Shown here in pieces: positions 4,303 to 59,053 of a stretch of 64,000 nucleotides of DNA; positions within the stretch are counted from its first letter, which is position 1; each line of letters opens with the position of its first letter. The notes below the pieces were generated by a model. The model worked only from the letters and a program-made list of their open reading frames with translations, did no database searches and was not told where the DNA came from. The position numbers and the translations under genes were made by a program. Source of the DNA: Thermoprotei archaeon (GTDB taxonomy: Archaea > Thermoproteota > Thermoprotei > Thermoproteales > B15-G16); the NCBI GenBank assembly GCA_003649205.1, contig QMRC01000008.1, positions 1 through 64,000 of the forward strand, given 5' to 3'.

Positions 4303-6990
4303 ATGAGGCTCAATAAGATTCGTTTTTTCCTACTGCTTTTTCTCGCCTTTATATCTGGATTACTAACATCACTCTGTACAGATATTTCACCTCCATCCTT
4401 TCGAGTTACTCAAGTCAATGCAACTCATTGGTTAGCTGAGGGATTTTACGAAATTGGAAGTGAGGTATATCTCAATGAAACTACTACTCTATCATCTAGC
4501 TATCTCACTACTTACAAAGTAAAGTATGAGACACCTATAAACACTGTTGATACATCGGTACTAAGATGTAAAATAGAGTATGGAGTGCCTACAAGTAGTG
4601 TTGGTACGGTATTGTTAGGTTATAGGCTTGAATTTGTCATCAATTATGGAGGTAACTTCACAGTACTTAACCTCTCTGTATTGGATCCAATTAAGAAGCC
4701 TAATTGGTGTGGTGCAGAGAGGATACACAAGATTAATGTAACTATTTGGGATCCATACGGGTACAACTATGTTTCTTTGGTGCTTCTGGAATTGGCTGAT
4801 GTGAGACTTATGTGGAACAAAACTGGCTTCTATGAGGTTGATGATCCATATGATAGAGTTGATCTTCTTGGAGGTAATGTAACTGGTTCAGGTGCTGTAT
4901 TGACTTTAACATTTTGGATTAAACCACATTGGAGCATTGGAGGACTAGTTGATGTATATGTGTACGCTAATGATACCTCAAATAATTTAGTATGTGAAAC
5001 TGTCTTTAGTGATGCACTGTACTTTGTAAACTGTACTAAGATAGTTAATTTGCAGTTGAAGAAGCAGTACTATGAACCTAATGAGACTGCTTGGATTTCT
5101 GGGTATGTAGTCTACAATGGTACTACAGTGGGTACTTACGACTACTTGACAATAAATGGAACTGCTGTATCTGTTTCTGAGAATGGATTCTTTAACTATA
5201 CCTTCACAGTACCATCACTAGCAGGTAACTACACATATGTTCTTGAGCTTGCTCACGGAGTTGAGAAGTACTTAATCAACATAACTGTTGCCAAGAATAG
5301 GATTGAGGTTAGGGTGCTTACGGAGTACAATGAAACGGTACCTCTCGAAGATGTAGTGGTTGAGATTAGAGATCTTGAAACGGGTGAATTAGTTAAGAGA
5401 GTGCATGGAGGTGCAGAGATAATAACTGAGATCGAGGCTGGGAGCTACACGATTACAGTCTATGTGCATGGAATTAAGTTGTTTAAAGGTAATGTCTCAG
5501 TAACAGGTGCAATTGTTGAAGTAGATGTACCTAAGTTGAAGAGAGTTATTGACTATCTCGGAAGGTTGAGACCATTCATTACAAATGCTACAGTCAAGCT
5601 GGCTCTATACGACAATGAAACGAGAAGAGCAGTATTCCTATTGAGTGGTAGTGGAGTAGTGAGGTTTGTGTACTACTGCAATGTAACGCAGTTACCGTGT
5701 ATACTATGTAATGTGACGTATCACATAGTTGAGCTAAGTAAGAAGAGGGTCATAGTAGATCTGGAGATTGGTAGCACTGCTAATGTCACAGTTATCGATC
5801 CAAGGTACTTGAAGGTAACTGTAATCAATCCATTTGGAAGAGTTTACCCACTTAACATAAAGTTGCTAAACATTACTCAGTACATAGAGATTGAGAACGC
5901 AACGACATACCTACTACCTGCAATGAATATGACAGAGCTGATTGTAGACTACAGAGGTATTGCTAAGAAGCTAGCGTTCTCACTTCTCACTGACAAGAAC
6001 GTAACCGTGATGTACCCGATAGCAGAAGTTATATGCTACAAGAACGTTACTAGGTATCTCTGGAGCAATGCAACATCTATGAAAGTACACGACATCAGCT
6101 ACAGTAAGTTCAATTGGTCTAGAGTAGAGATCCTACTGTCTGGTGAGGGTTGGGTTGCCTTAGCAGTGGATTTAGGACTTCTACCTACGAAGATAGCTGT
6201 AGAAAGCAATGTAACGTGTAATTATAGATTGAATGGTACTGTACTCTACGTATACTGTAAAACCAGCTCAACAGCTAGAATCGTTGTGGAGGATGAGTAC
6301 AAGTTAACTATCGAATTACTTGATAGACTTGGGAACTACCTACCTGTTGAAGTAACTGTGGTGATTAACGGTAGTGAGGTAAGTGGAAGGCAGATTATTG
6401 AGAGCTTTCTACCTCCAGCAATGTACGTAGTTGAGGTTCCAGTTAATGTATCTGGGTTCAACTTATACGGAATAAGTGAGGTCTGTATTGAACTAAGTGA
6501 GGACAAGGTCTTGAGGTTTGAGTATAGGGTACCGTCTAAGTTCAGAGACGTGAAGGTAGTTACAATTCGTGAAACTAACAATACAGTGATTCTGTACTTT
6601 GAGGGTTACCTCATTGACTACTATGGAAACCCAATTGTTAATAGATTGATCAATGTGTTGGTGTACGATGGAGGTAAATTGCTTACAAACTTAACAGGAT
6701 TAACAGATTCAACTGGTTACTTCACTACTGAGACTACAGAACTTGTGAAGGGTAGGAAGTACACACTTGTATTCGAGTACTCTGGAGACGACACATATGT
6801 AGAGAGTAAGTACACAACCACATGTGAGGTACCTAAGAAAGTTTCAGCACCTATACCAGCACCAACAGTTACACCGCTTGAGTACATTATCCTAGTACTC
6901 ATAGGTATAGCACTTGCACTAGCTATAGCAACTGCAGTAATAAAGCTAAGAAGGAAGGTCATTGCTATTAGGAGCTTGAGATACATCTAG
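4303..6990 (+). CDS. Type I membrane glycoprotein with Ig-like domains; paralog of 12666..15293
   Basis: Signal peptide, many NxS/T sequons, C-terminal Pro linker + TM + basic tail ending RYI. Confidence 0.85.
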   Translation: MRLNKIRFFLLLFLAFISGLLTSLCTDISPPSFRVTQVNATHWLAEGFYEIGSEVYLNETTTLSSSYLTTYKVKYETPINTVDTSVLRCKIEYGVPTSSVGTVLLGYRLEFVINYGGNFTVLNLSVLDPIKKPNWCGAERIHKINVTIWDPYGYNYVSLVLLELADVRLMWNKTGFYEVDDPYDRVDLLGGNVTGSGAVLTLTFWIKPHWSIGGLVDVYVYANDTSNNLVCETVFSDALYFVNCTKIVNLQLKKQYYEPNETAWISGYVVYNGTTVGTYDYLTINGTAVSVSENGFFNYTFTVPSLAGNYTYVLELAHGVEKYLINITVAKNRIEVRVLTEYNETVPLEDVVVEIRDLETGELVKRVHGGAEIITEIEAGSYTITVYVHGIKLFKGNVSVTGAIVEVDVPKLKRVIDYLGRLRPFITNATVKLALYDNETRRAVFLLSGSGVVRFVYYCNVTQLPCILCNVTYHIVELSKKRVIVDLEIGSTANVTVIDPRYLKVTVINPFGRVYPLNIKLLNITQYIEIENATTYLLPAMNMTELIVDYRGIAKKLAFSLLTDKNVTVMYPIAEVICYKNVTRYLWSNATSMKVHDISYSKFNWSRVEILLSGEGWVALAVDLGLLPTKIAVESNVTCNYRLNGTVLYVYCKTSSTARIVVEDEYKLTIELLDRLGNYLPVEVTVVINGSEVSGRQIIESFLPPAMYVVEVPVNVSGFNLYGISEVCIELSEDKVLRFEYRVPSKFRDVKVVTIRETNNTVILYFEGYLIDYYGNPIVNRLINVLVYDGGKLLTNLTGLTDSTGYFTTETTELVKGRKYTLVFEYSGDDTYVESKYTTTCEVPKKVSAPIPAPTVTPLEYIILVLIGIALALAIATAVIKLRRKVIAIRSLRYI

Positions 6991-7004
6991 GTTTTCTGAC
7001 TACT

Positions 7005-7286
7005 TCACAGGTACTTTATCTTTCTCTTGTTTGATGCTGTTTCTTTTATGGATCTGAAGATTATTGTCATTCCGATAGTTGCACCAGTGCTCATTACTAG
7101 TGCTCTAATTATGTCGAAACCTAGGACTAACCACGTAACTAGTATCATTGCACCGAATATGATCAACATGCCGATCACTGAGTTAGCTAGTACGTCTAGG
7201 AACTCACTTATGAAGGCAAGTACTACACCAGCAACAAGACCAATACCAAATAGCAGAGCCATATCGACAATAGTCATACACAACAC
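7005..7286 (-). CDS. Small 3-TM membrane protein; paralog of 7342..7623
   Basis: Hydrophobic, LFGIGL..G...FLDVL...VIG motif, ends KYL. Confidence 0.75.
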   Translation of the reverse strand: MLCMTIVDMALLFGIGLVAGVVLAFISEFLDVLANSVIGMLIIFGAMILVTWLVLGFDIIRALVMSTGATIGMTIIFRSIKETASNKRKIKYL

Positions 7287-7341
7287 CTATCAAACCTAAC
7301 ACTAGTACACACTTAAATAAGGTAGTTCATCTAGATTTCAC

Positions 7342-7623
7342 GTGAGTGATACCATGCTTGAGGTACTTATGTTATTTGGTTTCGGTATACTGCTCGGTAT
7401 CTTCATGGGGCTACTAGCTAAGTTCATAGATGTACTCACGAAGACCGTAATTGGTTTGATTGCACTATTCACGATCTTCTTCATCATCAATTTAGCGTTT
7501 CTGAAGTTCAATGTAGTTCTTGCACTGTGTACGTCACTAGGTGAAGTTCTCGGTATATCAGCAGTAACACGCTATGGATTCAAATCGAAGACAGTAGTTG
7601 AGAGAAAGAGAGCATACTTGTAG
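7342..7623 (+). CDS. Small 3-TM membrane protein; paralog of 7005..7286
   Basis: LFGFGI..G...FIDVL...VIG motif, ends RAYL. Confidence 0.75.
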   Translation: MSDTMLEVLMLFGFGILLGIFMGLLAKFIDVLTKTVIGLIALFTIFFIINLAFLKFNVVLALCTSLGEVLGISAVTRYGFKSKTVVERKRAYL

Positions 7624-8859: not shown

Positions 8860-9393
8860 CTAGAGGTACCTCCTCTCAAGCTCATCTGCTAACCTCCTCA
8901 ATCTACTGACTAATTCTCTAATTCTCTTTCTCTCTCCTAAGAAGAGTGGTTTCCAGACATCTCTCCTAGCTTTAGCATCCCATCTAAGCGATTTCCAGTT
9001 ACCGTATGGATTAACTACTTTCTCCTCAAGACCTTCAACAAATTCTTCCTTTCCATGTATGTAGTCTAGTGGTGCTACTGGTGATCTACGTACTCTAGAT
9101 GGTGTAGTTACCTTGACCTCACCTGTTCTAGTATTTACAGTAATGTAGTACTCAAGTCTAGGTCTATCATCAGTCCAGAAATCTCTATACCAACTAAACG
9201 TAACCTTACCGTCCTTACAGACCTTAATCACATTGTAGGGAATCCTACTACAGGCTACGTCCTCACCTAGGATACTACACATCTTCTCTCCAAGAATCTT
9301 CTTAGCCTTCTCAAGAAGCTCCCTAGCCCACTCAGGAAGCTCATGCTCACAACCATAGTAGACATATACACACATAGGCATTTCCTTCGGCAT
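8860..9393 (-). CDS. Hypothetical soluble protein ending RYL
   Basis: 177-aa ORF, typical codon usage, GGTG RBS. Confidence 0.7.
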   Translation of the reverse strand: MPKEMPMCVYVYYGCEHELPEWARELLEKAKKILGEKMCSILGEDVACSRIPYNVIKVCKDGKVTFSWYRDFWTDDRPRLEYYITVNTRTGEVKVTTPSRVRRSPVAPLDYIHGKEEFVEGLEEKVVNPYGNWKSLRWDAKARRDVWKPLFLGERKRIRELVSRLRRLADELERRYL

Positions 9394-11542: not shown

Positions 11543-12028
11543 GTGATGAGTGCTCGACCTGTAGTCTGTACGGTGCTCTTCTATGTTGTAGCTTCGTTAG
11601 TTGATGTTCTAGTTGTTGAGTTCATCATTAGGTCGACCTCAGCGTGGAGCATAATAAGTTACTGGCACTCAGCACTAACACTACTTCTCATAACGACTCC
11701 TGCACTCATCTCACTAGCTACTAACAGCACCAAACCACTCATACTCGGGATACTCTACTACATCACATGTGTTGAAGACCTCATGTACGCACTGTGGTGT
11801 AGCCTACTTAGACTGTGGACGTGGGATTGGGTAGACCCGTTCTTCTCGTGGTACTGGTTAGATAAGTCACCATTTGTTAGGTTGATAGCTACTGTGCTCG
11901 GTCTACCTCACGTAACGACGCTGTGTCTATACATTTCGTGTGGTGTAGCAACTGTACTGACACTACTCATTGCAAGGATTAGAGAAGTGAGTGTAGTTGG
12001 GAGCTGTGCTAAGGTACGTTACCTGTAG
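11543..12028 (+). CDS. Multi-pass membrane protein ending RYL
   Basis: About 4 hydrophobic helices. Confidence 0.7.
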   Translation: MMSARPVVCTVLFYVVASLVDVLVVEFIIRSTSAWSIISYWHSALTLLLITTPALISLATNSTKPLILGILYYITCVEDLMYALWCSLLRLWTWDWVDPFFSWYWLDKSPFVRLIATVLGLPHVTTLCLYISCGVATVLTLLIARIREVSVVGSCAKVRYL

Positions 12029-12665: not shown

Positions 12666-15293
12666 TTAGATGTATCTCAATCTCTTGATTTCTAGTGTCT
12701 TCTTCAGTAGTAGCTTCAGTGATATGACTGTGATCACTACGATAATCAGTACCACAATCACTATGATTAGTAGTGGATACATCTCGACTACTGTCGGTGC
12801 TTTGGGTGGTGGTGATGGTGCTTTACCAACCTTGATCTCTGTACTGTATGAGGAGCTTACGTAGGTATCGTCTCCGCTAAACTCTAGTACTGCTGTTATG
12901 CTGTATCCCTTCAGTACTTCAAATGGATCTGAGGTGAAGTAACCGCTACTATCTGTAGTTGCTGTTAGATTTGCTACAGGTGTTCCATTGACTACAAGTG
13001 CTATTGTCACATTTCTATTCGGTACTGGATTACCGTAGTAGTCAAGTAACTTACCCTCAATTCGCACTAGAGCAGTAGTATTCATCTCCTGAACCACATC
13101 TACCTTAACGTCCTTAAACGCTGTCGGCACTCTGTACCACACCTTGAGCACGATATCAGAGGCATTCACCGTAATGACCCTAGTAGTTTCATTGTATCCA
13201 TCGAAGAAGCTGTAGAAGTCAAATCCATCGACATTCTTCGGCAACTTAATTACGTAGTCCTCTGGGTAGAGGTATGCTCCAATTACATTACCGCTGTACT
13301 CCGTATCATTTATGTAGACAGTAGCTGAGATAGGTACTAAGTTCCCGAGCATATCGTAGAGTTCAATTCTCAGTAAGTAGAGATCCTCTACAATGACCTC
13401 TGCCGTACTACTGAGTCTACCCTCAACTATTAAGCGATTGTCTACTAGGCTCCACGTAGCTGTTACATTCGATAGAACACCTATTCTTGTAGGTAGAGTC
13501 TGAATGTAGAGGACTACCCTAAATCCTCCCTCACCTGAGACAAGTACCTTCACTCTACTGTACGGGAACTTAGGTGACATATTCTCGTAGGTTATGCTCG
13601 CATTAGCAATAAGCTCCCTAGTCCCTCCTCTGTAGTCTATGAACTTCGTGTACGGTAGCACTACCGTTAGGTTCAAGTCCCTCAACAAGTTGATTACCTT
13701 CTTAACCTCTACATCTCTGTAGATGACCCTCACAATGGTTTCTCGCTGTGGAGGTACTGTGTAGAGTGTTGCATTGCTTAGAGTCTCCCACGTAGTTAAG
13801 TTGAGGAACTCTATAGTTGCATTGTACGGTATTCCAAATGGATTAAGTACGAGTACTCTCAGCATTCTTGGATCGAGAACAGTTACATTAGCTGTACCTG
13901 ACATATTGAGATCGAGGATTACTCTCTTACTACTTAGCTCAACAACTCTGTAGCTCACGTTACAGAGTACGTAAGGTAGCTTACTTAGGTTACAGTAGTA
14001 CACTAACCTATATGTACCGCTTCCACTCAGTATGAACTCAGCCCTCCTAGTTACGTTATCGAATACTGCTCTCACTACTGAGGCATTTGTTAGCCACGTC
14101 CTAACTCTACCTAGGTGATCAACTAGCTTCTTCATGATGGGTACTTTGATCTTGATGACTGGTTCTGTAACGCTAATGTTAATTACTCTACACCTAATAC
14201 CGTGTACATAGATGTAGACTGTCCAATTACCTCCCTCTACCTCAGTAACTATGTACTCACCTCCACGTACTCTCTTAACTACCTCTCCCGTAGTTGCATT
14301 CCTAATCTCCACAACGACATCCTCAACACGTGTAGTCTCATTAGCCTCAGTCAGTATGAGCACCTCAATTCTATTCTTGGCAACAGTTATGTTGATTAAG
14401 TACTCTCTAGCTCCGTGAACTGGCTTAATCACGTAGGTGTAGTTCCCTGCTACTGAAGGAGCATTGAAGGTGTAGTTGAAGAAACCGCTAGAGTCTACGT
14501 GCACTAGAGTTCCATTGATGTACACGTCATCTACAGCAGAGACATATGTCCCACTGTACACTACGTATCCACTAATCCACATAGTCTCATTTGGCTGTAC
14601 ATAGGTACTGCTCACAGCTAGGTTAATCACCTCAGTAGTATTTATGAAGCCTATAGCACCTACGTAGGTAGTCTCATTGACTAAGTTGTGGTACGTATCG
14701 TTGATGTACACGTAGACATCGTAGACACCAGAGATATTCCAATGCGGTACAATCTCAAACACCACAACTCCTCTACCGTACTTACCCTCAGCAGAACCCC
14801 CAACAAGACTTACCTGATTAAGTGGATCAGAAACCTCGTAGAAAGCAGTACCATTCCAAGCAATTGTAACATTCCCAAACCTCAACTCAACTAAGGTAGT
14901 GTAGTTCCAACCATGAGGATTCCAAAACGTCACATTCAACCTATGTACCTTCCCAGCACCTAAGTACACACCAGTTATAGGGTTTAAACACGTGAAGTTG
15001 AGTACCGTGAAGTTACCTCCATAAGATACATTGTATGAGAGAGAAACAGATACTAAGTAATTCGCTAGTGAAGTATCTGTAGTTACTTGAGCAGTACCCT
15101 GCACAGTACATATGCTTGTGTCAGTTGTCGTGTTTGCAGTTGCTACGTAGGTTGCATTGACACCCCATGCAGTAGCATTTATCTGATACACAACTAACTT
15201 AGCTGAAGAAGTAGTTACCTGAGCAATAGCAATAGAGGTTAGTAAACCAAGTAGAAAAAACAGTAGGGTTAAGAGAACACTTGTCTTTCTCAT
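12666..15293 (-). CDS. Type I membrane glycoprotein; paralog of 4303..6990
   Basis: Shared blocks YGGNFTVLN, PNET.WISGYVVY, YLINITVAKNRIEV, DYYGNP..NR, SGDDTYV; TM + basic tail ending RYI. Confidence 0.85.
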   Translation of the reverse strand: MRKTSVLLTLLFFLLGLLTSIAIAQVTTSSAKLVVYQINATAWGVNATYVATANTTTDTSICTVQGTAQVTTDTSLANYLVSVSLSYNVSYGGNFTVLNFTCLNPITGVYLGAGKVHRLNVTFWNPHGWNYTTLVELRFGNVTIAWNGTAFYEVSDPLNQVSLVGGSAEGKYGRGVVVFEIVPHWNISGVYDVYVYINDTYHNLVNETTYVGAIGFINTTEVINLAVSSTYVQPNETMWISGYVVYSGTYVSAVDDVYINGTLVHVDSSGFFNYTFNAPSVAGNYTYVIKPVHGAREYLINITVAKNRIEVLILTEANETTRVEDVVVEIRNATTGEVVKRVRGGEYIVTEVEGGNWTVYIYVHGIRCRVINISVTEPVIKIKVPIMKKLVDHLGRVRTWLTNASVVRAVFDNVTRRAEFILSGSGTYRLVYYCNLSKLPYVLCNVSYRVVELSSKRVILDLNMSGTANVTVLDPRMLRVLVLNPFGIPYNATIEFLNLTTWETLSNATLYTVPPQRETIVRVIYRDVEVKKVINLLRDLNLTVVLPYTKFIDYRGGTRELIANASITYENMSPKFPYSRVKVLVSGEGGFRVVLYIQTLPTRIGVLSNVTATWSLVDNRLIVEGRLSSTAEVIVEDLYLLRIELYDMLGNLVPISATVYINDTEYSGNVIGAYLYPEDYVIKLPKNVDGFDFYSFFDGYNETTRVITVNASDIVLKVWYRVPTAFKDVKVDVVQEMNTTALVRIEGKLLDYYGNPVPNRNVTIALVVNGTPVANLTATTDSSGYFTSDPFEVLKGYSITAVLEFSGDDTYVSSSYSTEIKVGKAPSPPPKAPTVVEMYPLLIIVIVVLIIVVITVISLKLLLKKTLEIKRLRYI

Positions 15294-15302: not shown

Positions 15303-16106
15303 CTACGGAAACACTATCCTATACGTTACAGTTATACTACCCCCAGCAGGAACACTAACAGGTTCAGGAAGAACATCATAGAACATAAGTGCCTTAGCAT
15401 AATTATTGTTATCGGCGTCGTATGGATCAAATTGTAGTATTAAGCCAACTTCAGTTATATTTACGTCACTACTCGGTGAGTACGAAGCAGAGAAGACTAA
15501 AGTTATGTTACTCTCCGTCACACTCACCGTAGGAGTTGAGATCACTATCTCGACAAGTTCATTAGCTAACTTATATGCAGATCTGCTAAATGTAGCTGTA
15601 CCATTACCAAAAGCAATAAACCATCTATCTGACCGTACACAACACCATGTATCTTCATATGAGTAACTATCATCACTATATCCTATTTTTTTACTAGTAC
15701 CCCCTAGATCAACTACACTAGTAGAAAGATCACCACCACGTGGATCGAATATTAAAAGCAGTAATTTTGCGAAGTTTTCTACTGGTGAGTGCATTGAGTA
15801 TGTTCGTTTCAGTAGTAGCTTCCCGTATCTATCTCGTACCTCGACATCTATGAAGCCGAGAACCAGTGCATTACTCTTACTTGTCTTCTTCTCTCCCAAC
15901 TTCACAACTCCTTGAGTCTGCGTCATTAGGTGTGGTGTCACTAGGTACATACCCAGCACTAGACCTAGCACAAACGCAATAGACAGTATCACAACATCTC
16001 TCCTATTCACAGTCCTCACCACACTATCTTTATCAGAATAGATATTTATAATATGTTTCTTGATCTTGACAAGATAGGGATGATAGAGTAACTGCTTGCT
16101 TTTCAA
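15303..16106 (-). CDS. N-anchored tail/baseplate-like beta protein; paralog of 3588..4292 (true start probably GTG 16010)
   Basis: EVRDRYG, FGNGTAT...YKLANEL, VNITEVGL, LMFYDV shared with the 3588 ORF. Confidence 0.7.
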   Translation of the reverse strand: MKSKQLLYHPYLVKIKKHIINIYSDKDSVVRTVNRRDVVILSIAFVLGLVLGMYLVTPHLMTQTQGVVKLGEKKTSKSNALVLGFIDVEVRDRYGKLLLKRTYSMHSPVENFAKLLLLIFDPRGGDLSTSVVDLGGTSKKIGYSDDSYSYEDTWCCVRSDRWFIAFGNGTATFSRSAYKLANELVEIVISTPTVSVTESNITLVFSASYSPSSDVNITEVGLILQFDPYDADNNNYAKALMFYDVLPEPVSVPAGGSITVTYRIVFP

Positions 16107-16183: not shown

Positions 16184-17005
16184 CTAAATGTATTTAGTAG
16201 TTCTTACTTCTACTATCTTCTTTCGTAGCTTTGTTAGGTATATTACAACTAGCACTACTAGTGCTATGATGACTGTGATTACTATTGCTATTGTTGTAGT
16301 TGGTACTGTCTTGATCTCTATGTAGTCTCCACTTGCTGTTGCTTCACCTTCAACAATAATTGCCTCACTTGGATCTACCGTTACTTTCGTTCCAAATGGT
16401 GTAGTTAAGGTCATGTTTGCTACGTAGTAGCTAAATACTGTGTGAGTACCATTGTACGTCCTTCTCCACTTCTCTAGCGGTACACTGAATGGTTTTAGGT
16501 ATATGAAGAAGCACTTAGCTGGGTTCAGCGGTATGTTATTGTAGATGAACTCAGTTGAGTTGATGTTAGGTGACATAGCTCTAAACCTAACGCAAATCGA
16601 CTTACCGAGCATTGTTGAGTTAGCCCTAACACCTATCTTAATTGTCATGGAGACATCGATCTTGAGCGTTCCCGCTGTTGGCTCTGTAACTGAGTACGAG
16701 AAGTCTAGTACCTCTACACTAGCATTCCTATACCCTAAATCTCTTGATAAGTGTCTACTCAGTACCTCACCTAGAATCCTCCTTACACTGTACTTAACAC
16801 TGAGTACTGCTGTCTTAAATCCAAACCAGTAATTCTTCTCAGTAGCCGAGACATTACTTATCGTTACAGTACAACTGTACTTCACAATAGCGTAGTCATC
16901 ACGTACCTCAATACTACACGACAATGCATATATTCTCACACTTGAGAGCAGTAGCACAATCAAGAGCACCGTCACTAACGCAACTCTACAATTCATACAC
17001 GACAC
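16184..17005 (-). CDS. Type I membrane protein; paralog of 40571..41356
   Basis: Signal peptide, C-terminal TM + basic tail ending KYI; PLEKWRRTYNG..T.F and ASGD shared with the 40571 ORF. Confidence 0.8.
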   Translation of the reverse strand: MSCMNCRVALVTVLLIVLLLSSVRIYALSCSIEVRDDYAIVKYSCTVTISNVSATEKNYWFGFKTAVLSVKYSVRRILGEVLSRHLSRDLGYRNASVEVLDFSYSVTEPTAGTLKIDVSMTIKIGVRANSTMLGKSICVRFRAMSPNINSTEFIYNNIPLNPAKCFFIYLKPFSVPLEKWRRTYNGTHTVFSYYVANMTLTTPFGTKVTVDPSEAIIVEGEATASGDYIEIKTVPTTTIAIVITVIIALVVLVVIYLTKLRKKIVEVRTTKYI

Positions 17006-19833: not shown

Positions 19834-22800
19834 TCACAAATACCTCACTCTCCTAATTGTTGCTTGTTTCTTCGACAGTGCCACAATTATGCCAATTATG
19901 AGCAGTATAACTACTATGGCTAGTAGCCCTATGAATGCCATTGCTAGTGCAAATCCAGTAGATACCACAGTTACTATGTACCTCTTACTGTCATTTCTCG
20001 GGTCGAGATCTGTCACACCTATACCTACCTCAACTACTCTATCTTGTCTAGCTCTCTCAATTGGTGGGAACTTAATCCATAGATCGTTTGGAGGTACCTT
20101 AGCTGTTACTGTAACTGTGTAGTACTCTGATGTACCTAGCTTGAAGTCTGTCTTGGAAAGTGTTGCATTTATGAACGATACGTAGAGATTTGCTAAGCCG
20201 TGTATCTCATTTGTTCTGACAATAGCCTTAACCGTGATGTAGCTATTAGACGTGACTACTCTTGGAGGAGGCTTAATCACTTTAACAAGCTCGAAGTCTC
20301 TATCTATGTACAGTGTATAATTTACAACTTCATTACCAGCAACTAAGTCTAGTGGATTACTTGCATTGACAAACACATAGAGGTACGGAGTCCAAGGCAC
20401 CTTAATCGTGTAGTTCAACCAGTAGATACCTCTCTTCGTTATGTTTAGATCAAGCATCTTCTTGAATATACCGATCTTCCTCGGCTTAGGAGCAATACCG
20501 TACTTGCTAACCACAATGTCTATCTTGGTTAGGGTTTCTAGCACTCTCGTAGGTGATACAATACCTACACATACCTTTATTGCGTCTTCTGGTAGTATAG
20601 CTCCCTTAACTCTCTGTGATACTGGTTCAATAACTACGAAAACTCTAATGTCTACGAATCCCCTAATCTTCTCAACTTCACTCCACAGCTCATTATTTCT
20701 AGGATCTGTATCGTTCATGTACTTAACTATCTTGACGTGTGCTCTAACGTAGCCTCCCTCCGTCATGTTTATGCTGAACCACTTCCAGATTGGGTTCATA
20801 CCTCTCCACAAGTATATTGTCTCTGTTATGTTTCCTAGTAGGTTGAGTGGTTTGCCCTCTGCAGTGCAGTTCCACAGCTCTAGTACGTACGTTATGTTCT
20901 GTGGTGTATTTGTCCAGAAGAGTACTGTAACTAGGTGACTGATGTTGCCGAAGTAGTAGCCTAGACCCATGTGTCTCCAGATGTGGCACTCTAGAACAGC
21001 TACCTCTGGTGTGTAGAGTGGCGAGTTCTTAGGTACTACAAATACTAACCAGTAGCACTTATCCATGTGTAGTGTCCTAGTCCAGTTATACTCTCCAGCC
21101 TGTACAAATACTTTGACTGTACTGCAGTTCCTAATGTAGAAGTATGCAAAGCCTGTTCCATTTGTCCTAGTTACAGTTGATACACCTCTTGTTAGGTCAG
21201 TAACGTTAACTAGTGCTCCTTCGTAGGGTGCTGTATCGTTGTATATTACCTGTACTGCTAGTACCCACATGTATGTACAGTTTGCGAAGTGTATTGGGTA
21301 TGGCGGGTGTGTCCAGTTGCTTCCTGCTGGAGGAGGTACAAACGTTATTGACTGATTGGCAACTACCTTGGGAACTAGATATATTCTCAAGGTCATTGTC
21401 TTGTTGAAGAGGTATATCTGCCAATCAGTTACATTGTAGAATCCTTGCTTGTACACAGATACATTGTACCAGTAACCACTCCACAGACCAAATGTAGCTA
21501 CACCACTTGCATCAGTATAGTTCGATACCTTGTATCCTCCACGAGTCTTCTCAACTATTACGAGAGCACTTGGTACTGGTGAGTAATTCAGTGCATTCAC
21601 TACTTGTACGATTAACTTTGCTGGCATTACGTAGCTGTACCAAGGTAGATAGAACTCAAGCCAAATACACCTATCTAGGTATACAGTCCTATTCTCATCA
21701 AAGACCTGTGTCGTATTGTGTGGATTAACTGCATGTACATTGACTACATATGTTCTATTTGCTTGCAACCAGAATACTACGAATCCAGTACCGTTAGTAA
21801 TTCCTTGTCTAATCAATGTATTGTCGTGATAGACCTTTACCTCAGCTCCGTGAAATGGCTTACCATCCTTCCACACAACCTGTATAGCCAATGCGTAGAG
21901 TACAGTACCGTTCGGTAGCACTATGGTTGGATATGTTGCATTGCTCCCTTCTGGAGGAGGTTGTACAGTTACGTTCTCAGGTACTAGGTATACGTAGAGC
22001 CAATCAACTGTCTCATTCATGAATATAGCACCGTAGCCTGTTCTGTAACCACTCTTACTAGCCTCAACATACCAAGTCCTCATGGTCACTACCTGTATTG
22101 GAGGTGTCCAACCAGTTTCATTTGTTGTGAACGTCCTTAAGTCAGCCCTATCAGGTCTAGACCACACCTTAACGGTAGCACCTTCAATACCTGTATTAGT
22201 CACAGCATCAACTACTCTCACGTAGAGAGTAGCATTCTCACCTACTGGAGGTACTACTGTGAGTAGGAGCGGGAAGGACTTCTTATCGTAGTCATCAGAC
22301 TTCAAGTAGTTACCGACAGAAGCATCAACTACCCAAGCTTCACACAGTAACTCTACAGGTCTCTGAACTACTTGATACATCTGCTGTGCCTCAGCTATGT
22401 AGTTACCCATGTCAACTATCACAAAGGTGCTATTCACGACATGTACCTTCGTTATGTTACTCCACGACTTCACATCAATCCAATCCATCTTCGTCTCATT
22501 GAAGTACCTCAAGCTAACTCTCCACTCCACAGTGACATCCTGCTCTACATTACTGTAGACGTATATGCTGAAGTGTCTTGGAGCTGTTGCAGTAACTGAG
22601 GTACCATTGAAGTATATCTTCAACCCAGCATTGGGAGGTAGTACTGTGTAGATGATGAATGTGTAGTTCTTACAGTACTGTAGAGTACCGCCGTTAACTG
22701 GATCGAGCCACTTAGTCCTAGTTCTGGATATATAGACATAGTATGCGGTTTCATTTATTGTGTAACTACCATTGAATTCAAACATGTTACCATATCTTCT

Positions 22801-34901: not shown

Positions 34902-35326
34902 AGGTACTTCACCGCTCTAACACTCACTACCTTCCTACCGTATCTGAGCTTGAACATGTCGTAGATTGCCGTTACTACCATCATAGTACCTGCTAGTATT
35001 ACACCGAACCAGAACGGTATTGTGAAGTAGTGTATGTAGAGCATTCCGTAGAGTACCATTGCCATACCTACAATACCTGAAATAGACTCAAATACGTAGT
35101 TAGCTAGTCTGTAGATGCTCTTCTCCACTGGTATAAGTGATCTACCTGTTACTGATCTAGCGACATCATCTAGAGCATCTACACTAGACAGTAGCACTAA
35201 CACAGCAAGTAGTGGTGCTTCAGGACTTGTCATGGTTGCGAAGAACATCGCAACTATGAGAAGGAACACAAAGGTGAAACCATTCAGAGCAGTAACGAGT
35301 ACCCTAGTTAGCAAGTTGATCACCAT
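34898..35326 (-). CDS. Four-TM membrane protein ending KYL
   Basis: Hydrophobic helices, basic tail. Confidence 0.75.
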   Translation of the reverse strand: MVINLLTRVLVTALNGFTFVFLLIVAMFFATMTSPEAPLLAVLVLLSSVDALDDVARSVTGRSLIPVEKSIYRLANYVFESISGIVGMAMVLYGMLYIHYFTIPFWFGVILAGTMMVVTAIYDMFKLRYGRKVVSVRAVKYL

Positions 35327-48470: not shown

Positions 48471-48503
48471 ACCTCACACCTACTGTATCTCTATCTCGTA
48501 TGT

Positions 48504-49593: not shown

Positions 49594-51466
49594 TATTCTC
49601 CTAAATGACTTGCTGGTACTCACTGCACCAAATGGCTTCGGGAAGACTTATGCTGTTGCTGGTGCTGTAGCTAAGTTATCCAGTATGAAGATCTTCGATA
49701 GAATATACTTCCTAGCTAATTCACAAGATGCTTGTGGATCTATTGTACAGAAGTTGAGACATCACAATGCTAAGTTAGTTATCTGGTATGAAGGTATTGA
49801 ACGTAGCTGTATGAATAAGGAACTTCTTGAAGTGGTAGAGCATTTAACTGGAGACCCATCTCTTGCATGTCTAGTATGTCCATACAGTATACTGCAACAG
49901 AGTAAGAATAGAGAAATAACTCCAGAGACCTTGGTTCGAAGGGTGTTGAAGTTCTTTGAGGAGCGTGATGTAGCTGTTATTAGGGCTAGAGATGTGAAGA
50001 TGTACTTACTACCAAATCAAGAAATCTGTGGTCACAGTGTAATTAGAGCACTTACACTAAGACCTTCTCTAGACTTTAAGATTTATCTAGAGCGACTGAA
50101 TGTAACACCGATTTTTGTGGCACCTTTCCAGCTCTTTCTAACGTACAGTACAGCACAAGTCTTCATGAAGAGTGCTGAGAGATTGAGAAAAGAGCGTAGG
50201 TACCTATTCGTATTTGATGAGGCTGATAACTTACTTCTAATGGGTAAGGTCTACACGATAGAGAAGCCAGATTTTACAGACTTTGACTACGAGATCTTGA
50301 ATAAGCTATCTCCGTCTACCTATCGTCTTAGTGCTTTCATAGATATCTATACTAAGTTATTTAACATAATTGCGGAGGGTAGGAAGGAGCTTTCTAGGTA
50401 CGATTCTAGGATTGGTGTTAGTGATATTAAGAGGCAAGTACATGAGTTACTTAGCTCAAGGACTGTTGAGCGTGTTGTTGCTGGTGTCTGTAAGCGTCTA
50501 CGTACGATACTTCTTGAGGCTTTGAAGCAGATGAAGAGGACATTTCTCTTTAGGGCTGTTGAGTCTCTAAATCCCTTCACGCTAAGATTACTTAAGAGCT
50601 ATGGTGTTCAAGAGTTTGTTAAGTACATTGACTGTGATGTTGTTCGTAGGAGAAAGGGTAGTCAGGTTGAGGAGGAGGTTACTGCTATTCGTCTTCAGAA
50701 CTTCTCAATAGTTTCCGACATGGTGTTCAGCAATGAGAAACCTATTCGTAAGAGTCAGAAGGTAGTTGTAACTGCTACGTGGTGTGATGACTTAATGCGT
50801 AGATTATTCAAGGTAGGTGCAGAGTGTGTGAGGGTTGTCCGTGCTGTACCTGATAACGTGTACTTTGGTAGATTTGTAATCTATGAAACTGGTAGTAGGG
50901 CTCTAGAATCTACAGTATATGGTAAGGGTCAGTTCACATATCGAGTACTTTACCTAATTAAGAAGGTAATAGATGTCTATGCTGAGAAGTTCGGTATGAA
51001 GCCTAGTGGTGTTCTCGTGTGGTTTATGTCTAAGAGGCAATTTAGAGCATTTCTATCAGTACTTCGAGAGAAGAGGGCTAAGATCTCGATTGAGAGCGAT
51101 GATTTAGCGAGCATTACAGTTGCTAAGGTTAAGGTGTTACTCACATACCTTGGTTCTAGGATTACCAGAGGTGTTGACCTACCTGACTACGATATCTCCA
51201 TAGTGTTAGCACCGTTTCTAAGACCTCCTAGATCCTTCGGTGCTAGATGGCTTGACTGCGACTATGCTAGAGCAATATTCGAGAGCATACAAGCAGTCAT
51301 GAGAATTGTCAGATCACCATCACCTTCTAGACCAAAGGTTGTAATGCTTGAGGATTCACTATTTAAGAGCCCATACAAGGACTATGCACCAGCATGGTTC
51401 GTAGACTTCATCAAGAGTGGAAGGAAGTTTATTGAGCTAGATCTCGTAACTGCTGTATCAATCTAG
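49559..51466 (+). CDS. Superfamily 2 helicase (XPD/DinG-like, possible Fe-S cluster)
   Basis: Walker A APNGFGKT, DEAD, TAT, TRGVDLP, QAVMRIVRS; Cys cluster after motif I. Confidence 0.85.
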   Translation: MVEKYIRIKTDDILLNDLLVLTAPNGFGKTYAVAGAVAKLSSMKIFDRIYFLANSQDACGSIVQKLRHHNAKLVIWYEGIERSCMNKELLEVVEHLTGDPSLACLVCPYSILQQSKNREITPETLVRRVLKFFEERDVAVIRARDVKMYLLPNQEICGHSVIRALTLRPSLDFKIYLERLNVTPIFVAPFQLFLTYSTAQVFMKSAERLRKERRYLFVFDEADNLLLMGKVYTIEKPDFTDFDYEILNKLSPSTYRLSAFIDIYTKLFNIIAEGRKELSRYDSRIGVSDIKRQVHELLSSRTVERVVAGVCKRLRTILLEALKQMKRTFLFRAVESLNPFTLRLLKSYGVQEFVKYIDCDVVRRRKGSQVEEEVTAIRLQNFSIVSDMVFSNEKPIRKSQKVVVTATWCDDLMRRLFKVGAECVRVVRAVPDNVYFGRFVIYETGSRALESTVYGKGQFTYRVLYLIKKVIDVYAEKFGMKPSGVLVWFMSKRQFRAFLSVLREKRAKISIESDDLASITVAKVKVLLTYLGSRITRGVDLPDYDISIVLAPFLRPPRSFGARWLDCDYARAIFESIQAVMRIVRSPSPSRPKVVMLEDSLFKSPYKDYAPAWFVDFIKSGRKFIELDLVTAVSI

Positions 51467-51807
51467 ACGTACTTCATTACCTCTAGCTTTGCTGATGTAC
51501 TACCTATCTTCGATCCAAGCATCATCAAACCTCCAGTAATGAAGCCGAAGCTACATACCTCCGCTATATATCTTACTTCGTACATTAGTCCTATTGCTAG
51601 TATGATCAACGTGAAGCCTGTTAGTACGTACCCTAGGACGAGAATCTTCTTCATTTCCTCTCTAACTACTTTTCTCGCTCCTGTAAGTGCTGACACTATG
51701 ATCCCTAGCCCGAGGCATGCTAGGAATGGTATAACTGTGTGGAGTAGTACTGCAAGACCTATACCAAGTACTAGAAATCCTATGAATATGTCTCTATCGA
51801 ACTTCAC
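51463..51807 (-). CDS. Small 4-TM membrane protein ending KYV
   Basis: Hydrophobic, GGTGA RBS. Confidence 0.7.
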   Translation of the reverse strand: MKFDRDIFIGFLVLGIGLAVLLHTVIPFLACLGLGIIVSALTGARKVVREEMKKILVLGYVLTGFTLIILAIGLMYEVRYIAEVCSFGFITGGLMMLGSKIGSTSAKLEVMKYV

Positions 51808-58259: not shown

Positions 58260-58290
58260 CCACCCTCGACACCTATTCTTCAAACAATCA

Positions 58291-58640
58291 GAGGGGTACA
58301 TACCTGATGAAGGACAGAGAATTCCTCTTACGCTATCATCATTTGTTCAGTTTAGTTTCATAATACTCCGTATCAGTATCCTATGGGTTATAACTCATTA
58401 TCAGTACCTTGTGCATAATACTCATTTAGTAGTTGAACACCTTTGAAAACTGCAGTAATCTCCAGCATTGTCTCCTAAGCAACCTGAGGGAGTGTATTCC
58501 TGATGAGGGATGTATTTTGCACCTTACACCTTGCGAAGTATAAAGTCCAGTATTTGAGGTATCAGGTACTCACTAGATATTTTATCCTACATTACTCATG
58601 CTATAGTGTCTGAAGTTTCCGATGAGGAATGTCCACTGAT
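58291..58640 (+). ncRNA. Candidate ncRNA units 3-4 (same leader as 55550/55728)
   Basis: GAGGGGTACATACCTGATGA (58291-58310), GAGGGAGTGTATTCCTGATGA (58486-58506); blocks shared with unit 1. Confidence 0.55.
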
Positions 58641-58735
58641 CTATACGTTGTGAACTCTAGTAGTTGATTTCGTTCTGTGTAGTACAGCTGTTTGTCTGCT
58701 CTCGGTGTGAGTCCTTATAGTTTCGGTAACTTGTA

Positions 58736-59053
58736 TTGCTGTTAGCTATGAGGTGTAGTGGTGAGAGTGCGTATGAGTTGGCTAGGAGGTTGCTGTTGAG
58801 ATCTCTCCTAGTGTTGAAGCAAGGTACGAGGAGTTCAGGGTTCTGGATAACACCGCATAAGGTAGCGAAGATCAATAAGGTGAGTGGTAGAGCAATCGGT
58901 AGATTCATACACATGTTACTGAGTGAACTTGAGAAGGAAGGACTAGTTCAAGGAATGAACACTGGTAGTAGAAGGTACTCAAAGAAGTACTACGTCAAGC
59001 TAGATAACGTAGATAAGTGCATTGAGTACTTGAGAAGAACTAAGTACCTCTAA
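58736..59053 (+). CDS. Winged-helix DNA-binding protein ending KYL
   Basis: ITPHKVAK...IGR....LSELEKEGLV......KKYYV. Confidence 0.7.
   Translation: MLLAMRCSGESAYELARRLLLRSLLVLKQGTRSSGFWITPHKVAKINKVSGRAIGRFIHMLLSELEKEGLVQGMNTGSRRYSKKYYVKLDNVDKCIEYLRRTKYL

Follow-up and report, generated by a model that had tools for sequence, protein, structure and literature searches.

Sixteen mostly unrelated proteins of a virus-like element of roughly 100 kb, found with a heat-loving archaeon, share the same three-residue C-terminal signature, [KR]-Y-[ILV]-stop, and related elements carry their own versions of such a tail, which points to a private protein-sorting or assembly code. The stretch of DNA analysed here (the window) comprises the 64,000 nucleotides at positions 1 to 64,000 of the forward strand of contig QMRC01000008.1 (C8 below) in the Thermoprotei archaeon assembly GCA_003649205.1 (G000 below), a 2.07 Mb metagenome-assembled genome (MAG) of 31 contigs. 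The end of C8 overlaps the end of a second contig, C20, by 123 identical bases, so the two form one element of at least 96,453 bp.

The initial annotation had listed 14 open reading frames (ORFs) ending in this signature, and its observation is confirmed. All 14 termini end exactly as listed, in table order from 4303 to 58736 RYI, KYL, RYL, RYL, RYI, KYI, RYL, RYV, KYV, KYL, RYL, RYL, KYV and KYL. With a greedy ORF caller (≥60 aa, 2356 ORFs in the whole genome), the signature ends 14 of 101 ORFs on C8, 2 of 17 on C20, 1 of 82 on C7, and 0 of the 2156 ORFs on the other 28 contigs. This means that it ends 16 of 118 ORFs in the element compared to 1 of 2238 in the rest of the genome (Fisher p=9.3e-21). 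The tripeptide class is equally common inside proteins of the element (78/28198) and of the host (1615/576200), which gives an expectation of only 0.33 at element C-termini (binomial P(≥16)=2e-22). The result holds at ORF lengths of ≥100 aa (15/97 compared to 1/1905) and ≥150 aa (10/65 compared to 1/1537). RYL alone ends 6 of 118 element ORFs (P=1e-10, or 8e-7 after multiplying by 8000 tripeptides). In an unbiased scan of reduced-alphabet tripeptides at offsets 0–5 from the C-terminus, the element gives "basic-aromatic-aliphatic" at offset 0, with 17 observed and 0.64 expected (p=2.6e-19). The best values for 16 host contig pieces and four known crenarchaeal viruses lie between 2e-5 and 2e-3, making the element an outlier by about 14 orders of magnitude, and no equivalent was found in the four viruses.

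As the initial annotation had stated, selection acts on the peptide and not on the DNA. The basic position is encoded by AGG (5), AGA (4), AAG (5), AAA (1) and CGT (1), and the tyrosine by TAC (13) and TAT (3). Nine different codons occur at the last position, the stops are TAG (6), TAA (6) and TGA (4), and nothing is conserved downstream of the stops. A hydropathy scan agrees with the earlier statement that 11 of the 14 are membrane proteins, and no replication enzyme carries the tag, also as stated. The description of the motif as genome-wide is not supported, since the tag is confined to the element.

Five near variants had also been proposed, at ORFs 7342 (RAYL), 3588 (RYA), 31730 (LRY), 7678 (KYIR) and 59739 (KHI). 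Their termini are as given, but only 7342, a paralogue of 7005, scores as a member of the extended tail. The RYA end of 3588 is the conserved last strand of a different, extracellular fold family, ...YYIYV[RK]Y[AG], and no support was found for 31730, 7678 or 59739. The open-ended ORF at the start of the window continues on C20 into a 2104-aa protein ending ...RRTRYL, and is thus a 15th tagged gene that touches the window. The tagged proteins and their neighbours are collected below.

Table. Tagged proteins of the window and associated genes (window coordinates; TM, transmembrane helix; G025, L011 to L016, related elements and loci described in the text).
Position (strand)	Protein	C-terminal end	Supporting observations
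3..3413 (-)	N-terminal 1137 aa of a 2104-aa type I membrane glycoprotein; C-terminus with TM lies on C20, beyond the window	...ARKTVTIRRTRYL-stop	123-bp exact overlap of C8(-) with C20(+); joined ORF; paralogue of 19834-25749
3588..4292 (+)	Conserved partner gene of the large glycoproteins; N-terminal TM and beta-sandwich; not a tag carrier	...YYIYVRYA	Orthologues sit next to the large proteins in L012-L016; AF2 model pLDDT 73.7; 48 BFVD hits at E≤1e-3, to phage tail fibre proteins and to lipothrixvirus/spiravirus proteins
4303..6990 (+)	895-aa type I membrane glycoprotein	...KLRRKVIAIRSLRYI-stop	Family of 165 representatives at E≤1e-3
7005..7286 (-)	93-aa protein with 2 TM helices	...NKRKIKYL-stop	Paralogue of 7342-7623
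7342..7623 (+)	93-aa protein with 2 TM helices; degenerate tag	...KSKTVVERKRAYL-stop	9.5 bits with the 12-residue tail matrix
8860..9393 (-)	177-aa soluble protein	...ADELERRYL-stop	No Pfam family
11543..12028 (+)	161-aa multi-pass membrane protein	...SCAKVRYL-stop	
12666..15293 (-)	875-aa type I membrane glycoprotein	...KKTLEIKRLRYI-stop	46% identical to 4303-6990; orthologue G025_21898-25161 carries RRVLR
15303..16106 (-)	Second copy of the tail-fibre-like partner gene; untagged		Paralogue of 3588-4292
16184..17005 (-)	273-aa type I membrane protein	...RKKIVEVRTTKYI-stop	97%-identical orthologue in L011 ends ...VEVRTIRYI (K to R, class kept); L013 orthologue ends ...RRRFVRRRSP
19834..25749 (-)	1971-aa type I membrane glycoprotein	...SKKQATIRRVRYL-stop	Orthologue tails: L013 ...RRFVRRKE, L015 ...RPRKYLRVGR, G025 ...RKRRTLENGFGEVRT
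28812..29804 (-)	330-aa soluble protein with a coiled-coil-like C-terminal half; tag follows a PAEKPAEKPAE linker	...EVRYV-stop	Only its own cluster found in a word-based search
32624..33340 (-)	238-aa type I membrane protein	...AKSVASTRRVKYV-stop	Syntenic orthologue G025_487-1395 ends ...ARRLLRRAD
33396..34901 (-)	Membrane-anchored subtilase (Peptidase_S8), untagged; part of the conserved six-gene membrane module		Pfam E=4.8e-47; orthologue in G025 (phmmer 5e-66) also untagged
34898..35326 (-)	142-aa protein with 4 TM helices	...GRKVVSVRAVKYL-stop	Syntenic orthologue G025_2695-3132 ends ...KRYRRILRRA
35866..36441 (-)	191-aa Rce1-like/CPBP intramembrane protease homologue, itself tagged; motif 1 reads EEIVFF instead of EEIVFR	...GYLERYL-stop	Pfam PF02517 E=3.2e-4, 21.4 bits, below the 22.4-bit cut-off; aligned with 5 relatives, 2 of which carry precomputed PF02517
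38314..38652 (+)	112-aa FUN14-family membrane protein	...EKRRRIRYL-stop	Pfam PF04930 E=3.6e-7; G025_8605-8988 (phmmer 5.5e-5) ends ...RKVRRVLRIAEEGE
51463..51807 (-)	114-aa protein with 2 TM helices	...AKLEVMKYV-stop	
58736..59053 (+)	105-aa soluble basic protein; may be a winged-helix DNA binder, on a reading of the sequence only	...YLRRTKYL-stop	No Pfam family

The 16 carriers comprise six large or medium type I glycoproteins, six small multi-pass membrane proteins and four soluble proteins. They are mostly unrelated, as BLAST finds only three paralogue pairs that involve carriers, and two carriers belong to families known from cells (FUN14 and Rce1-like/CPBP). The tag is biased towards membrane proteins, since 12 of 34 TM-containing element ORFs are tagged compared to 4 of 84 without a TM. 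The type I carriers have N-terminal signal-like helices and many N-x-[ST] sequons, so their tails face the cytoplasm, and in most carriers the tag follows a last TM helix and a basic linker. The motif is also longer than three residues. In the TM proteins it reads roughly [KR][KR]-x-[VAT]-x-[IV]-[RK]-x-x-[RK]-Y-[ILV], and the tag is the end of a tail of about 12 residues placed 12–16 residues after the last helix.

The strictly terminal position of the motif is peculiar to this element. Among 111 representatives of the glycoprotein family with a C-terminal TM, drawn from metagenomes, 60 have [RK][FYW][VILF] in the tail, compared to 14.6 expected from shuffled tails. In 47 of these 60 the motif ends 3–5 residues before the C-terminus (mode 4), in none is it terminal, and seven tails carry 2–3 copies or long extensions. 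These representatives are related to each other, and the figure of 47/60 therefore counts sequences and not independent events. In addition, tails are alike within an element and differ between elements. Within locus L013, four different large proteins end RRFVRR[KR]x, while in loci L014 and L015 the ends are KRYLRIGN and RKYLRVGR (for L015, of the form [KR][KR]YLR.G.).

A distantly related contig, C8 of a second genome (G025:C8; 27.8 kb, GC 0.49), shares a six-gene syntenic module with the element, and carries RRxL[RE] on the orthologues of the tagged proteins instead. Seven of its 24 ORFs have [RK]R[RK]?[AVTIL]LR in the last 14 residues, compared to 2/2238 in the G000 host ORFs, although this pattern was defined after seeing the data and the replication rests on one contig. 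All seven G025 ORFs that match tagged window proteins carry RRxL[RE] near the end, five at 3–7 residues from it and the two giant proteins at 9 and 21. The two G025 ORFs that match untagged window proteins (the subtilase and a CPxC thioredoxin-like protein) lack it. Each element therefore has its own tail consensus, shared across unrelated proteins.

The element itself looks viral. The conserved partner of the large glycoproteins has a predicted fold that matches phage tail fibres and lipothrixvirus proteins, and the glycoprotein family occurs in only 2/120 genomes of the class and 2/401 of a phylum sample, both counts including G000 itself. However, no capsid, packaging ATPase or other viral hallmark was found, so that "virion" is inferred from one fold match and from the gene content. 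The host assignment likewise rests on binning plus a few shared genes (NrdD is 54% identical).

The window is best explained as most of a virus-like mobile element of about 96–100 kb, co-binned with a Thermoprotei MAG, which marks a defined set of its own proteins with a short basic-aromatic-aliphatic signal at the cytoplasmic C-terminal end. It is proposed that one partner, as yet unidentified, most likely encoded by the element and co-evolving with the tails, reads all of them at the inner face of the membrane. This partner would gather the tagged proteins, mostly membrane proteins with a few soluble ones, into one assembly, either the membrane/adsorption apparatus of a virion or a DNA-transfer vesicle. 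The analysis itself establishes the enrichment, the selection at the peptide level, the cytoplasmic placement, the restriction to the element, the conservation of tag-bearing from orthologue to orthologue, and the concerted change of the motif between elements, whereas the existence of a single reader, its identity and the destination of the cargo are inferred. The interpretation in the initial annotation, a cytoplasmic tag read by a scaffold or matrix protein that gathers cargo into a virion envelope or vesicle, or else a processing signal, is partly supported. The idea of one common reader gains strong indirect support from the concerted evolution of the tails, but Pfam scans of 80 element proteins and PHROGs scans of 20 found no PDZ, TPR, WD40 or other peptide-binding domain. 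The tails are also very basic, and part of the signal could be plain electrostatics. This reading is held with only moderate confidence.

The main rival, which is possible but less likely, is that the tail is the substrate site of the element's conserved Rce1-like (CPBP) protease. The protease would trim the 3–5 residues after the aromatic-aliphatic pair, much as Rce1 removes -AAX from CAAX proteins, and in this view the genes of the present element already stop at the cut site. A CPBP homologue lies in the conserved six-gene membrane module of both elements, and the near-fixed distance of the motif from the C-terminus in relatives (3–4 residues in 6 of 7 cases in G025) is the geometry of a C-terminal trimming site. 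Moreover, all five CPBP relatives from elements of the extension type keep EEIVFRG, while the one from this "pre-trimmed" element has EEIVFFA, although this correlation sets five closely related sequences against one and the Pfam match of the window protein is below the curated cut-off. No Cys or lipidation site precedes the motif, four carriers are soluble, the protease is itself tagged, and the tails with 2–3 motif copies or long extensions suit binding better than a single cut. Processing would, however, be compatible with a reader that then binds the new C-terminus. It is more doubtful that there is no dedicated reader, and that the basic-aromatic tails bind the element's DNA or acidic lipid head groups directly, condensing the genome against the membrane or simply fixing topology. 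The apparent motif would then be a composition effect shared through common ancestry of a TM-plus-tail module. Tails are indeed Arg/Lys-rich in all lineages (RRRRALRRV, RRRRFVRRKR), and the large type I proteins share a homologous C-terminal domain with TM and tail. Yet the aromatic-aliphatic pair and its spacing are conserved well beyond composition, the tag is present on unrelated multi-pass and soluble proteins, and the whole tagged set switches motif type between elements. In addition, none of the 63 listed tails of host membrane proteins with C-terminal anchors (ORFs of 200 aa or more, tails of 8–25 residues) ends in the tag.

The resemblance to the HbYX motif, by which proteasome activators dock on the 20S proteasome, had also been raised in the initial annotation and is not supported. 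Docking on the host proteasome, or on another host factor that depends on a free C-terminal carboxylate, such as a PDZ protein, could serve to degrade the tagged proteins or to protect them, and the host has three proteasome subunit genes and one PDZ protein. However, beyond the penultimate Tyr at a free C-terminus in this element, the tags lack three of the four defining features of HbYX. Position -3 is K/R in 16 of 16 tags and not hydrophobic, the motif is not terminal in any of the 60 motif-bearing relatives, and the G025 lineage replaces Tyr by Ala, Val, Ile, Leu or Thr. The carriers include membrane glycoproteins, and are not ATPases or proteasome activators, while the host's own Cdc48-like ATPase ends in M-Y-Y. 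This reading is very unlikely. Chance, an ORF-calling artefact, or a DNA-level element such as a terminator or recombination site that happens to encode RYL-stop is refuted by the P values of 1e-19 to 1e-22, the varied codons and stops, the absence of shared downstream sequence, and the retention of the tag by orthologues.

Several known systems resemble the tails in part. Eukaryotic coat-binding tails of type I membrane proteins (dilysine KKXX-COOH, and p24-family tails with a di-aromatic pair plus basic residues) are likewise short cytoplasmic tails after a single TM helix, with basic residues and an aromatic/hydrophobic pair at a fixed distance of a few residues from the free C-terminus, and are present on otherwise unrelated cargo read by one common partner. 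However, no COPI/COPII-like coat is known in Thermoproteota and none was found here, the consensus differs and changes from element to element, and soluble proteins also carry it, so the resemblance is of design only. CAAX boxes share with the relatives a motif at a fixed 3–4 residues from the C-terminus, together with an Rce1-like protease encoded in the conserved module, but here there is no Cys at -4 and no sign of prenylation, nothing follows the motif in this element, and the carriers are TM-anchored rather than lipid-anchored. In enveloped viruses, envelope glycoprotein tails contact the capsid or matrix, as in the alphavirus E2 tail, where Tyr-x-Leu docks in a capsid pocket. There too, a Tyr plus an aliphatic residue in a short cytoplasmic tail of a type I glycoprotein couples membrane proteins to an internal component during assembly, but the motif belongs to one protein, while here at least 16 proteins of different folds share it and it evolves in concert. 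No nucleocapsid or matrix protein was identified in the element.

Archaeosortase/exosortase signals (PGF-CTERM, PEP-CTERM and similar) are also C-terminal, shared by many unrelated proteins of one genome, and present in lineage-specific variants. In those signals the signature lies outside the membrane, before the TM helix, and is cut off, whereas here it lies after the helix on the cytoplasmic side and also occurs on soluble proteins, and no exosortase-family gene is present in the genome. Colossal Ig-rich S-layer proteins of Thermoproteales (bioRxiv 10.64898/2026.08.21.746120) are very large, Ig-domain-rich type I membrane glycoproteins of the same archaeal class, with a TM helix and a highly basic cytoplasmic tail whose residues show lineage-specific conservation. 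Those tails are said to end in Lys in all homologues examined, while none of the six type I carriers here does, and that paper, its supplementary alignment aside, does not describe the tail on unrelated proteins. BLAST finds no significant similarity between the element's giant proteins and the host's candidate S-layer protein (contig C15, 1779 aa, tail ...RRKRLARLLAPGAPAR). Finally, encapsulin cargo-loading peptides target unrelated cargo to one shell protein by a short C-terminal peptide. No encapsulin/HK97-fold shell was detected among the 80 proteins scanned in Pfam and most carriers here are membrane proteins, but such peptides sometimes follow a flexible linker, as the tag does in 28812-29804.

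Contig C8, which continues beyond the window to 84,244 bp (GC 0.42), belongs to a 31-contig, 2.07 Mb genome (GC about 0.434) that is rated 93.8% complete and 4.2% contaminated and in which no 16S gene was found. The reverse complement of C8 overlaps the start of contig C20 (12,332 bp) by 123 identical bases, and across this join an open-ended ORF continues into a 2104-aa protein. The two contigs are therefore one element of at least 96,453 bp, with the assembly break inside a gene that has a 1971-aa paralogue. The protein cluster of ORF 4303 (ORFs are named here by their lower coordinate) is also recorded on a 99,827-bp contig elsewhere. No terminal repeat was found between the two available ends, no other contig of the bin matches the element, and no tRNA gene was found in the window. 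The genome lacks FtsZ and a detectable Snf7 protein, and no McrA was found in it. Its GTDB family holds only two genomes and its class holds 120. The host is read as a member of the Thermoprotei, which is an inference.

Pfam scans of 80 of the roughly 118 element ORFs revealed a replication and repair set comprising a family B DNA polymerase, two helicases, an Hjc resolvase, two Cas4-like nucleases, a DHH/DHHA1 protein, a ligase and a serine recombinase. In addition, the element encodes NrdD with a radical-SAM partner, an MtrA-thymidylate synthase fusion, a RAMP-like protein, a methyltransferase, a sulfotransferase, a GT4 glycosyltransferase, a membrane-anchored subtilase and an Rce1-like intramembrane protease. 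The remaining scanned proteins matched no family, and PHROGs scans of 20 proteins gave one weak hit, to a RecA-like P-loop. Only a few element proteins have host homologues. The closest is NrdD, which looks like a host-derived metabolic gene and supports the host link.

Locations of element and host features discussed in the text
Sequence	Coordinates	Strand	Feature
Window; C20 (L010)	1-3413; 1-3025		Ends joined by the 123-base overlap; the open-ended window ORF (3-3413) continues on C20 into the 2104-aa protein
Window	3588-4292		Conserved partner gene of a large glycoprotein
Window	15303-16106		Conserved partner gene of a large glycoprotein
Window	17487-18617		GT4 glycosyltransferase
C25	1245-2375		Gene 44% identical to the element's GT4 glycosyltransferase
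Window	19855-25759		Positions joined in one contig of sequencing run X4
Window	30971-31741		Radical-SAM protein that may be the NrdD activase
Window	35866-36441		Rce1-like protease
Window	53390-55514		Cas4-like nuclease (PF01930, E=2.6e-10) near a RAMP-superfamily protein (PF03787, E=1.3e-5)
Window	56421-58259		Anaerobic ribonucleotide reductase NrdD
C1 (host)	32530-34473		Host NrdD, 54% identical to the element's copy
L009 (C8 64001-84000)	2583-4166		527-aa fusion of an MtrA-like domain with thymidylate synthase
C3 (host)	117852-119126; 172303-173577		Two host copies, 37% identical to the fusion
C3 (host)	64601-65047; 226382-226828	+; -	ORF pair at mirrored coordinates
C3 (host)	47452-48900; 242529-243977	+; -	ORF pair at mirrored coordinates

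The initial annotation had listed 14 ORFs ending in [KR]Y[ILV]-stop, and this observation holds: all 14 termini are as described. Over 2356 ORF calls in the whole genome, the motif ends 14 of 101 ORFs on C8, 2 of 17 on C20, 1 of 82 on C7 (a radical-SAM/SPASM-like protein, presumably by chance) and 0 of 2156 on the other 28 contigs, so that the element differs from the rest by 16/118 to 1/2238 (Fisher p=9.3e-21). The same tripeptide class is equally frequent inside proteins of both sets (0.0028), which gives 0.33 expected termini. Because the motif had been chosen after inspection, a blind scan of all reduced-alphabet tripeptides at offsets 0-5 from the end was also run, and it recovered "basic-aromatic-aliphatic at offset 0" for the element at p=2.6e-19. 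The best values for 16 host contig pieces, and for PSV, TTSV1, SIFV and the first 50 kb of STSV1, stay between 2e-5 and 2e-3, and these four cultivated crenarchaeal viruses show no comparable C-terminal signal. Five codons are used at the basic position, two for Tyr and nine at the last position, all three stops occur, and nothing is shared downstream. Selection is on the peptide.

Of the 16 carriers, 12 have at least one predicted TM helix and 4 have none. Six are type I glycoproteins (4303, 12666, 16184, 19834, 32624 and the 2104-aa protein) with a signal-like N-terminal helix, many N-x-[ST] sequons and one C-terminal TM helix. Six are small multi-pass proteins: 7005, 11543, 34898, 35866 (Rce1-like), 38314 (FUN14) and 51463. 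The carriers without a TM helix are 8860, 28812, 58736 and C20 6954. In 28812, a 330-aa protein, the tag follows a PAEKPAEKPAE linker; a word-based homologue search for this protein returned only its own cluster, and an ESM Atlas search gave a best score of 0.84, below the level worth quoting. The proteins 58736 and C20 6954 are small and basic and by eye resemble winged-helix proteins, although no Pfam family supports this. Overall, 12 of 34 element ORFs with a TM helix are tagged, compared to 4 of 84 without one. In the TM proteins the tag is the end of a longer tail, roughly [KR][KR]-x-[VAT]-x-[IV]-[RK]-x-x-[RK]-Y-[ILV], which leave-one-out scoring recovers in about nine proteins and in the near variant 7342. 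BLAST finds only three paralogue pairs that involve carriers: 4303/12666, 19834/2104-aa and 7005/7342.

Orthologues from metagenomes were retrieved with an alignment (A1) of ORF 4303, its paralogue and two metagenomic homologues, which recovered six metagenome loci (L011-L016). Of these, L013 and L015 share gene order with the window. The large proteins of these loci end in ...VEVRTIRYI in L011 (a 97% identical orthologue of 16184), ...FKPRKYVKIKK in L012 (GC 0.28), and ...VPKRYLRIGN and ...RPRKYLRVGR in L014 and L015, while four different large proteins of L013 (GC 0.55) end in ...RRFVRRKE, ...RRRFVRRKR, ...RRFVRRRSP and ...RRFVRRRE. An exhaustive profile search found 165 family representatives at E<=1e-3. 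Of the 150 examined, 111 have a C-terminal TM helix by the criterion used here, and 60 of these carry [RK][FYW][VILF] in the tail, against 14.6 in shuffled tails. The motif ends 3, 4 or 5 residues before the C-terminus in 11, 30 and 6 of them, respectively, and it is never terminal. Seven tails carry two or three copies; among family members with repeated motifs in longer tails are P0050, P0052, P0048, P0033, P0028 and P0063 (for example ...RRRFVKHRH...TRFVRRKEFVRRADEED), and repeats of this kind are typical of short binding motifs. Other tail classes, such as ...RTPVFA and ...EDEFVG, also occur.

The most telling relative is G025:C8, a distantly related contig of 27.8 kb (GC 0.49). It shares a six-gene module in the same order, comprising a 185-aa TM protein, the Rce1-like protease, a TM protein of about 160 aa, a TM protein of about 143 aa, the subtilase and a type I protein of about 240-300 aa, and it also has the giant glycoproteins and a FUN14-like protein. 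Seven of its 24 ORFs have [RK]R[RK]?[AVTIL]LR in the last 14 residues, followed by 3-4 residues in six of the seven, while the same pattern, which was defined after seeing the data, occurs in 2 of 2238 host ORFs of the present genome. All seven G025 ORFs that match tagged window proteins carry RRxL[RE] near the end. The two that match untagged window proteins (subtilase and CPxC thioredoxin-like) do not, although the latter has KRFV ten residues from its end. It follows that tag-bearing is conserved gene by gene, and that the sequence of the tag is uniform within an element and differs between elements.

The glycoprotein family is rare in genomes, occurring in 2 of 120 in the class and 2 of 401 in a phylum sample, both counts including the present genome; the phylum sample gave one further weak hit (G334). 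A search of genome contigs with A1 returned one weak hit only, in a Nanoarchaeia MAG (28% over about 110 residues). No match was found in the phage collection (tblastn with PolB and with the 3588 protein) or among plasmids, and three scans of IMG/VR, with PolB, the 1971-aa protein and A1, returned no relative. Several family members sit on contigs of 69-100 kb, namely P0045 (100,056 bp), P0061 (96,575 bp) and P0155 (68,988 bp), and P0154 and P0006 lie on contigs of 36,772 and 31,010 bp. Near-identical copies of the element occur in seven sequencing runs of seven studies besides the possible source, labelled sediment, seawater or hydrothermal vent metagenomes. No RNA run is listed among those holding the element. 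When contigs of four runs were aligned to window positions 19000-38999, none of 40 inspected differences out of 594 falls in a tail codon, which is uninformative because tail codons make up only 72 of 20,000 bases. The X4 contig that joins two positions in this region skips the body of the 1971-aa gene but keeps its last six codons and the stop, with only 36 bases on the shorter side. It could represent a swapped glycoprotein cassette with the tail codons as a boundary.

No capsid or packaging gene was recognized. However, a conserved gene of about 230-270 aa precedes each ~880-aa glycoprotein and is also found in L012-L016. The AF2 model of the 3588-family protein (pLDDT 73.7) gives 48 BFVD hits at E<=1e-3, the best at 2.9e-9, to phage tail fibre proteins and to proteins of Lipothrixviridae (uncharacterized), a spiravirus (uncharacterized) and haloarchaeal tailed viruses. 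A PDB fold search with the same model gave no hit at E<=1e-3, the best being an HFTV1 tail protein and A511 gp105. The BFVD matches hint at a receptor-binding cassette shared with known crenarchaeal viruses. Taken together with the replication module and the rarity in genomes, the element is read, by inference, as a large virus or virus-derived element with a membrane-bound adsorption apparatus.

The initial annotation had proposed that the motif is a cytoplasmic tag read by a scaffold or matrix protein, or else a processing signal, and this interpretation is partly supported. The preferred reading, held with about even confidence, is a tail signal read by one co-evolving partner that brings the tagged set together at the inner membrane face. 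The strongest argument is the concerted switch of motif across the whole orthologous set between elements, which a shared reader predicts and which simple composition or shared ancestry does not. The enrichment, the selection on the peptide and the gene-by-gene conservation are shown by the analysis, whereas the existence and identity of a reader and the destination of the tagged proteins are inferred, and any cleavage of the tails is hypothetical.

A serious though tentative rival, or perhaps an added step, is CAAX-like trimming, suggested by the near-fixed spacing of 3-5 residues after the motif in relatives (47 of 60) together with the conserved Rce1-like protease. In this element no residues follow the motif, and neither any tag nor any relative's tail has a Cys before the motif that could serve as a prenylation site. 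The window protease matches PF02517 at E=3.2e-4 and 21.4 bits, below the 22.4-bit cut-off, while its relatives P0156 and P0157 carry precomputed PF02517. The EE...[R], H and H...N positions align, but the motif-1 Arg is Phe in the window protein: all five G025-type proteases keep EEIVFRG, while the protease of this "pre-trimmed" element reads EEIVFFA. That comparison is five closely related sequences against one, since the last homologue search returned only these relatives and the window's own cluster. The five relatives also carry a C-terminal extension of about 70 residues with an internal ARR[VI]LRYVG and a terminal RRR[AI]LRxx. Somewhat less likely, but possible, is direct binding of the tails to DNA or lipid without a reader.

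Docking on the proteasome through an HbYX motif, which the initial annotation raised on account of the penultimate Tyr, is not supported and is considered very improbable. Tyr does occupy position -2 in 16 of 16 tags, but it is replaced by Phe in L013 and by Ala, Val, Ile, Leu or Thr in G025. Moreover, position -3, which should be hydrophobic, is K or R in 16 of 16, and none of the 60 motif-bearing relatives is terminal, although a free carboxylate would be needed. The carriers are membrane glycoproteins, small TM proteins, a CPBP protease and a FUN14 protein rather than proteasomal ATPases or activators, and the host's Cdc48-like ATPase has its own M-Y-Y end. Archaeosortase and exosortase signals lie on the outer side, before the TM helix and a basic cluster, whereas the motif here lies after the TM helix and the basic linker and also occurs on four proteins without a TM helix; a six-frame search of the whole genome, which is 93.8% complete, with PF09721 found no cognate sortase. 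A single PDZ_2 match was found in the genome, on host contig C5, and none on C8 or C20, and the hydrophobic residue that PDZ domains would recognize is terminal here but not in relatives. The idea that the tags mimic the tail of the host S-layer protein was rejected, as the tail of the host candidate does not resemble the tag and the proteins show no significant similarity by BLAST.

In design, the closest things are eukaryotic coat-binding tails (KKXX and p24-type), CAAX processing and glycoprotein-tail contacts with the capsid in enveloped viruses, but membership in none of them is established here. The short cytosolic tail of a type I membrane protein is shared with dilysine and p24-type tails, and positions from the C-terminus are fixed in relatives, but the consensus differs from KKXX, and no coat-like domain was seen among the 80 element proteins scanned in Pfam. 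A 2026 preprint on colossal S-layer proteins of Thermoproteales (bioRxiv 10.64898/2026.08.21.746120) reports TM helices followed by basic tails with lineage-specific conservation, all ending in Lys. The element's proteins share this architecture, with Ig-like/CarboxypepD_reg matches, a TM helix and a basic tail, but none of the six type I carriers ends in Lys.

The phenomenon has no described counterpart in archaea or their viruses, as far as literature searches go; in particular, no sorting system based on a cytoplasmic tail code after the TM helix that co-evolves across a whole gene set has been described. If one partner reads these tails, this would be the first sign that an archaeal virus-like element carries a private targeting signal shared by many unrelated proteins. 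The tag predicts from sequence alone which 16 or so of about 118 dark-matter genes act together, the motif switch between elements ([KR]YΦ-COOH, RRFVRRKx, [KR]YLRxGx, RRxLRxx) is a natural experiment for finding the reader by co-variation, and the tail is a candidate portable tag for thermophile cell biology. The finding also defines a new, recurrent element family of about 100 kb in hydrothermal samples.

A more far-reaching and, on present evidence, doubtful possibility is that an uncultivated family of ~100 kb archaeal viruses or vesicle-forming elements runs its own protein-sorting code. In this view, each element would stamp its virion or vesicle proteome, including giant spike-like glycoproteins, small membrane proteins, a protease and small basic proteins that may bind DNA, with an element-specific C-terminal "zip code". 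An element-encoded coat or matrix protein would read the code, and in most lineages an Rce1-like protease would trim it in CAAX fashion. This would be a prokaryotic counterpart of eukaryotic cargo-tail recognition by coats, and it would allow the particle proteome to be read straight from sequence.

The Cas4-like nuclease and the nearby RAMP-superfamily protein of the element may have a counter-defence or recombination role. The host has two copies, 37% identical to the element's fusion of an MtrA-like domain with thymidylate synthase, although no McrA was found in the genome. The GT4 glycosyltransferase has its homologue on C25, a 4.9 kb contig (GC 0.47) that may belong to the host or to another element and that also carries an AAA+ ATPase ending ...AMYMR. 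Finally, many ORFs of host contig C3 occur twice with identical C-terminal stretches and matching lengths at mirrored coordinates, and this contig seems to contain a very large inverted duplication or to be a palindromic misassembly.
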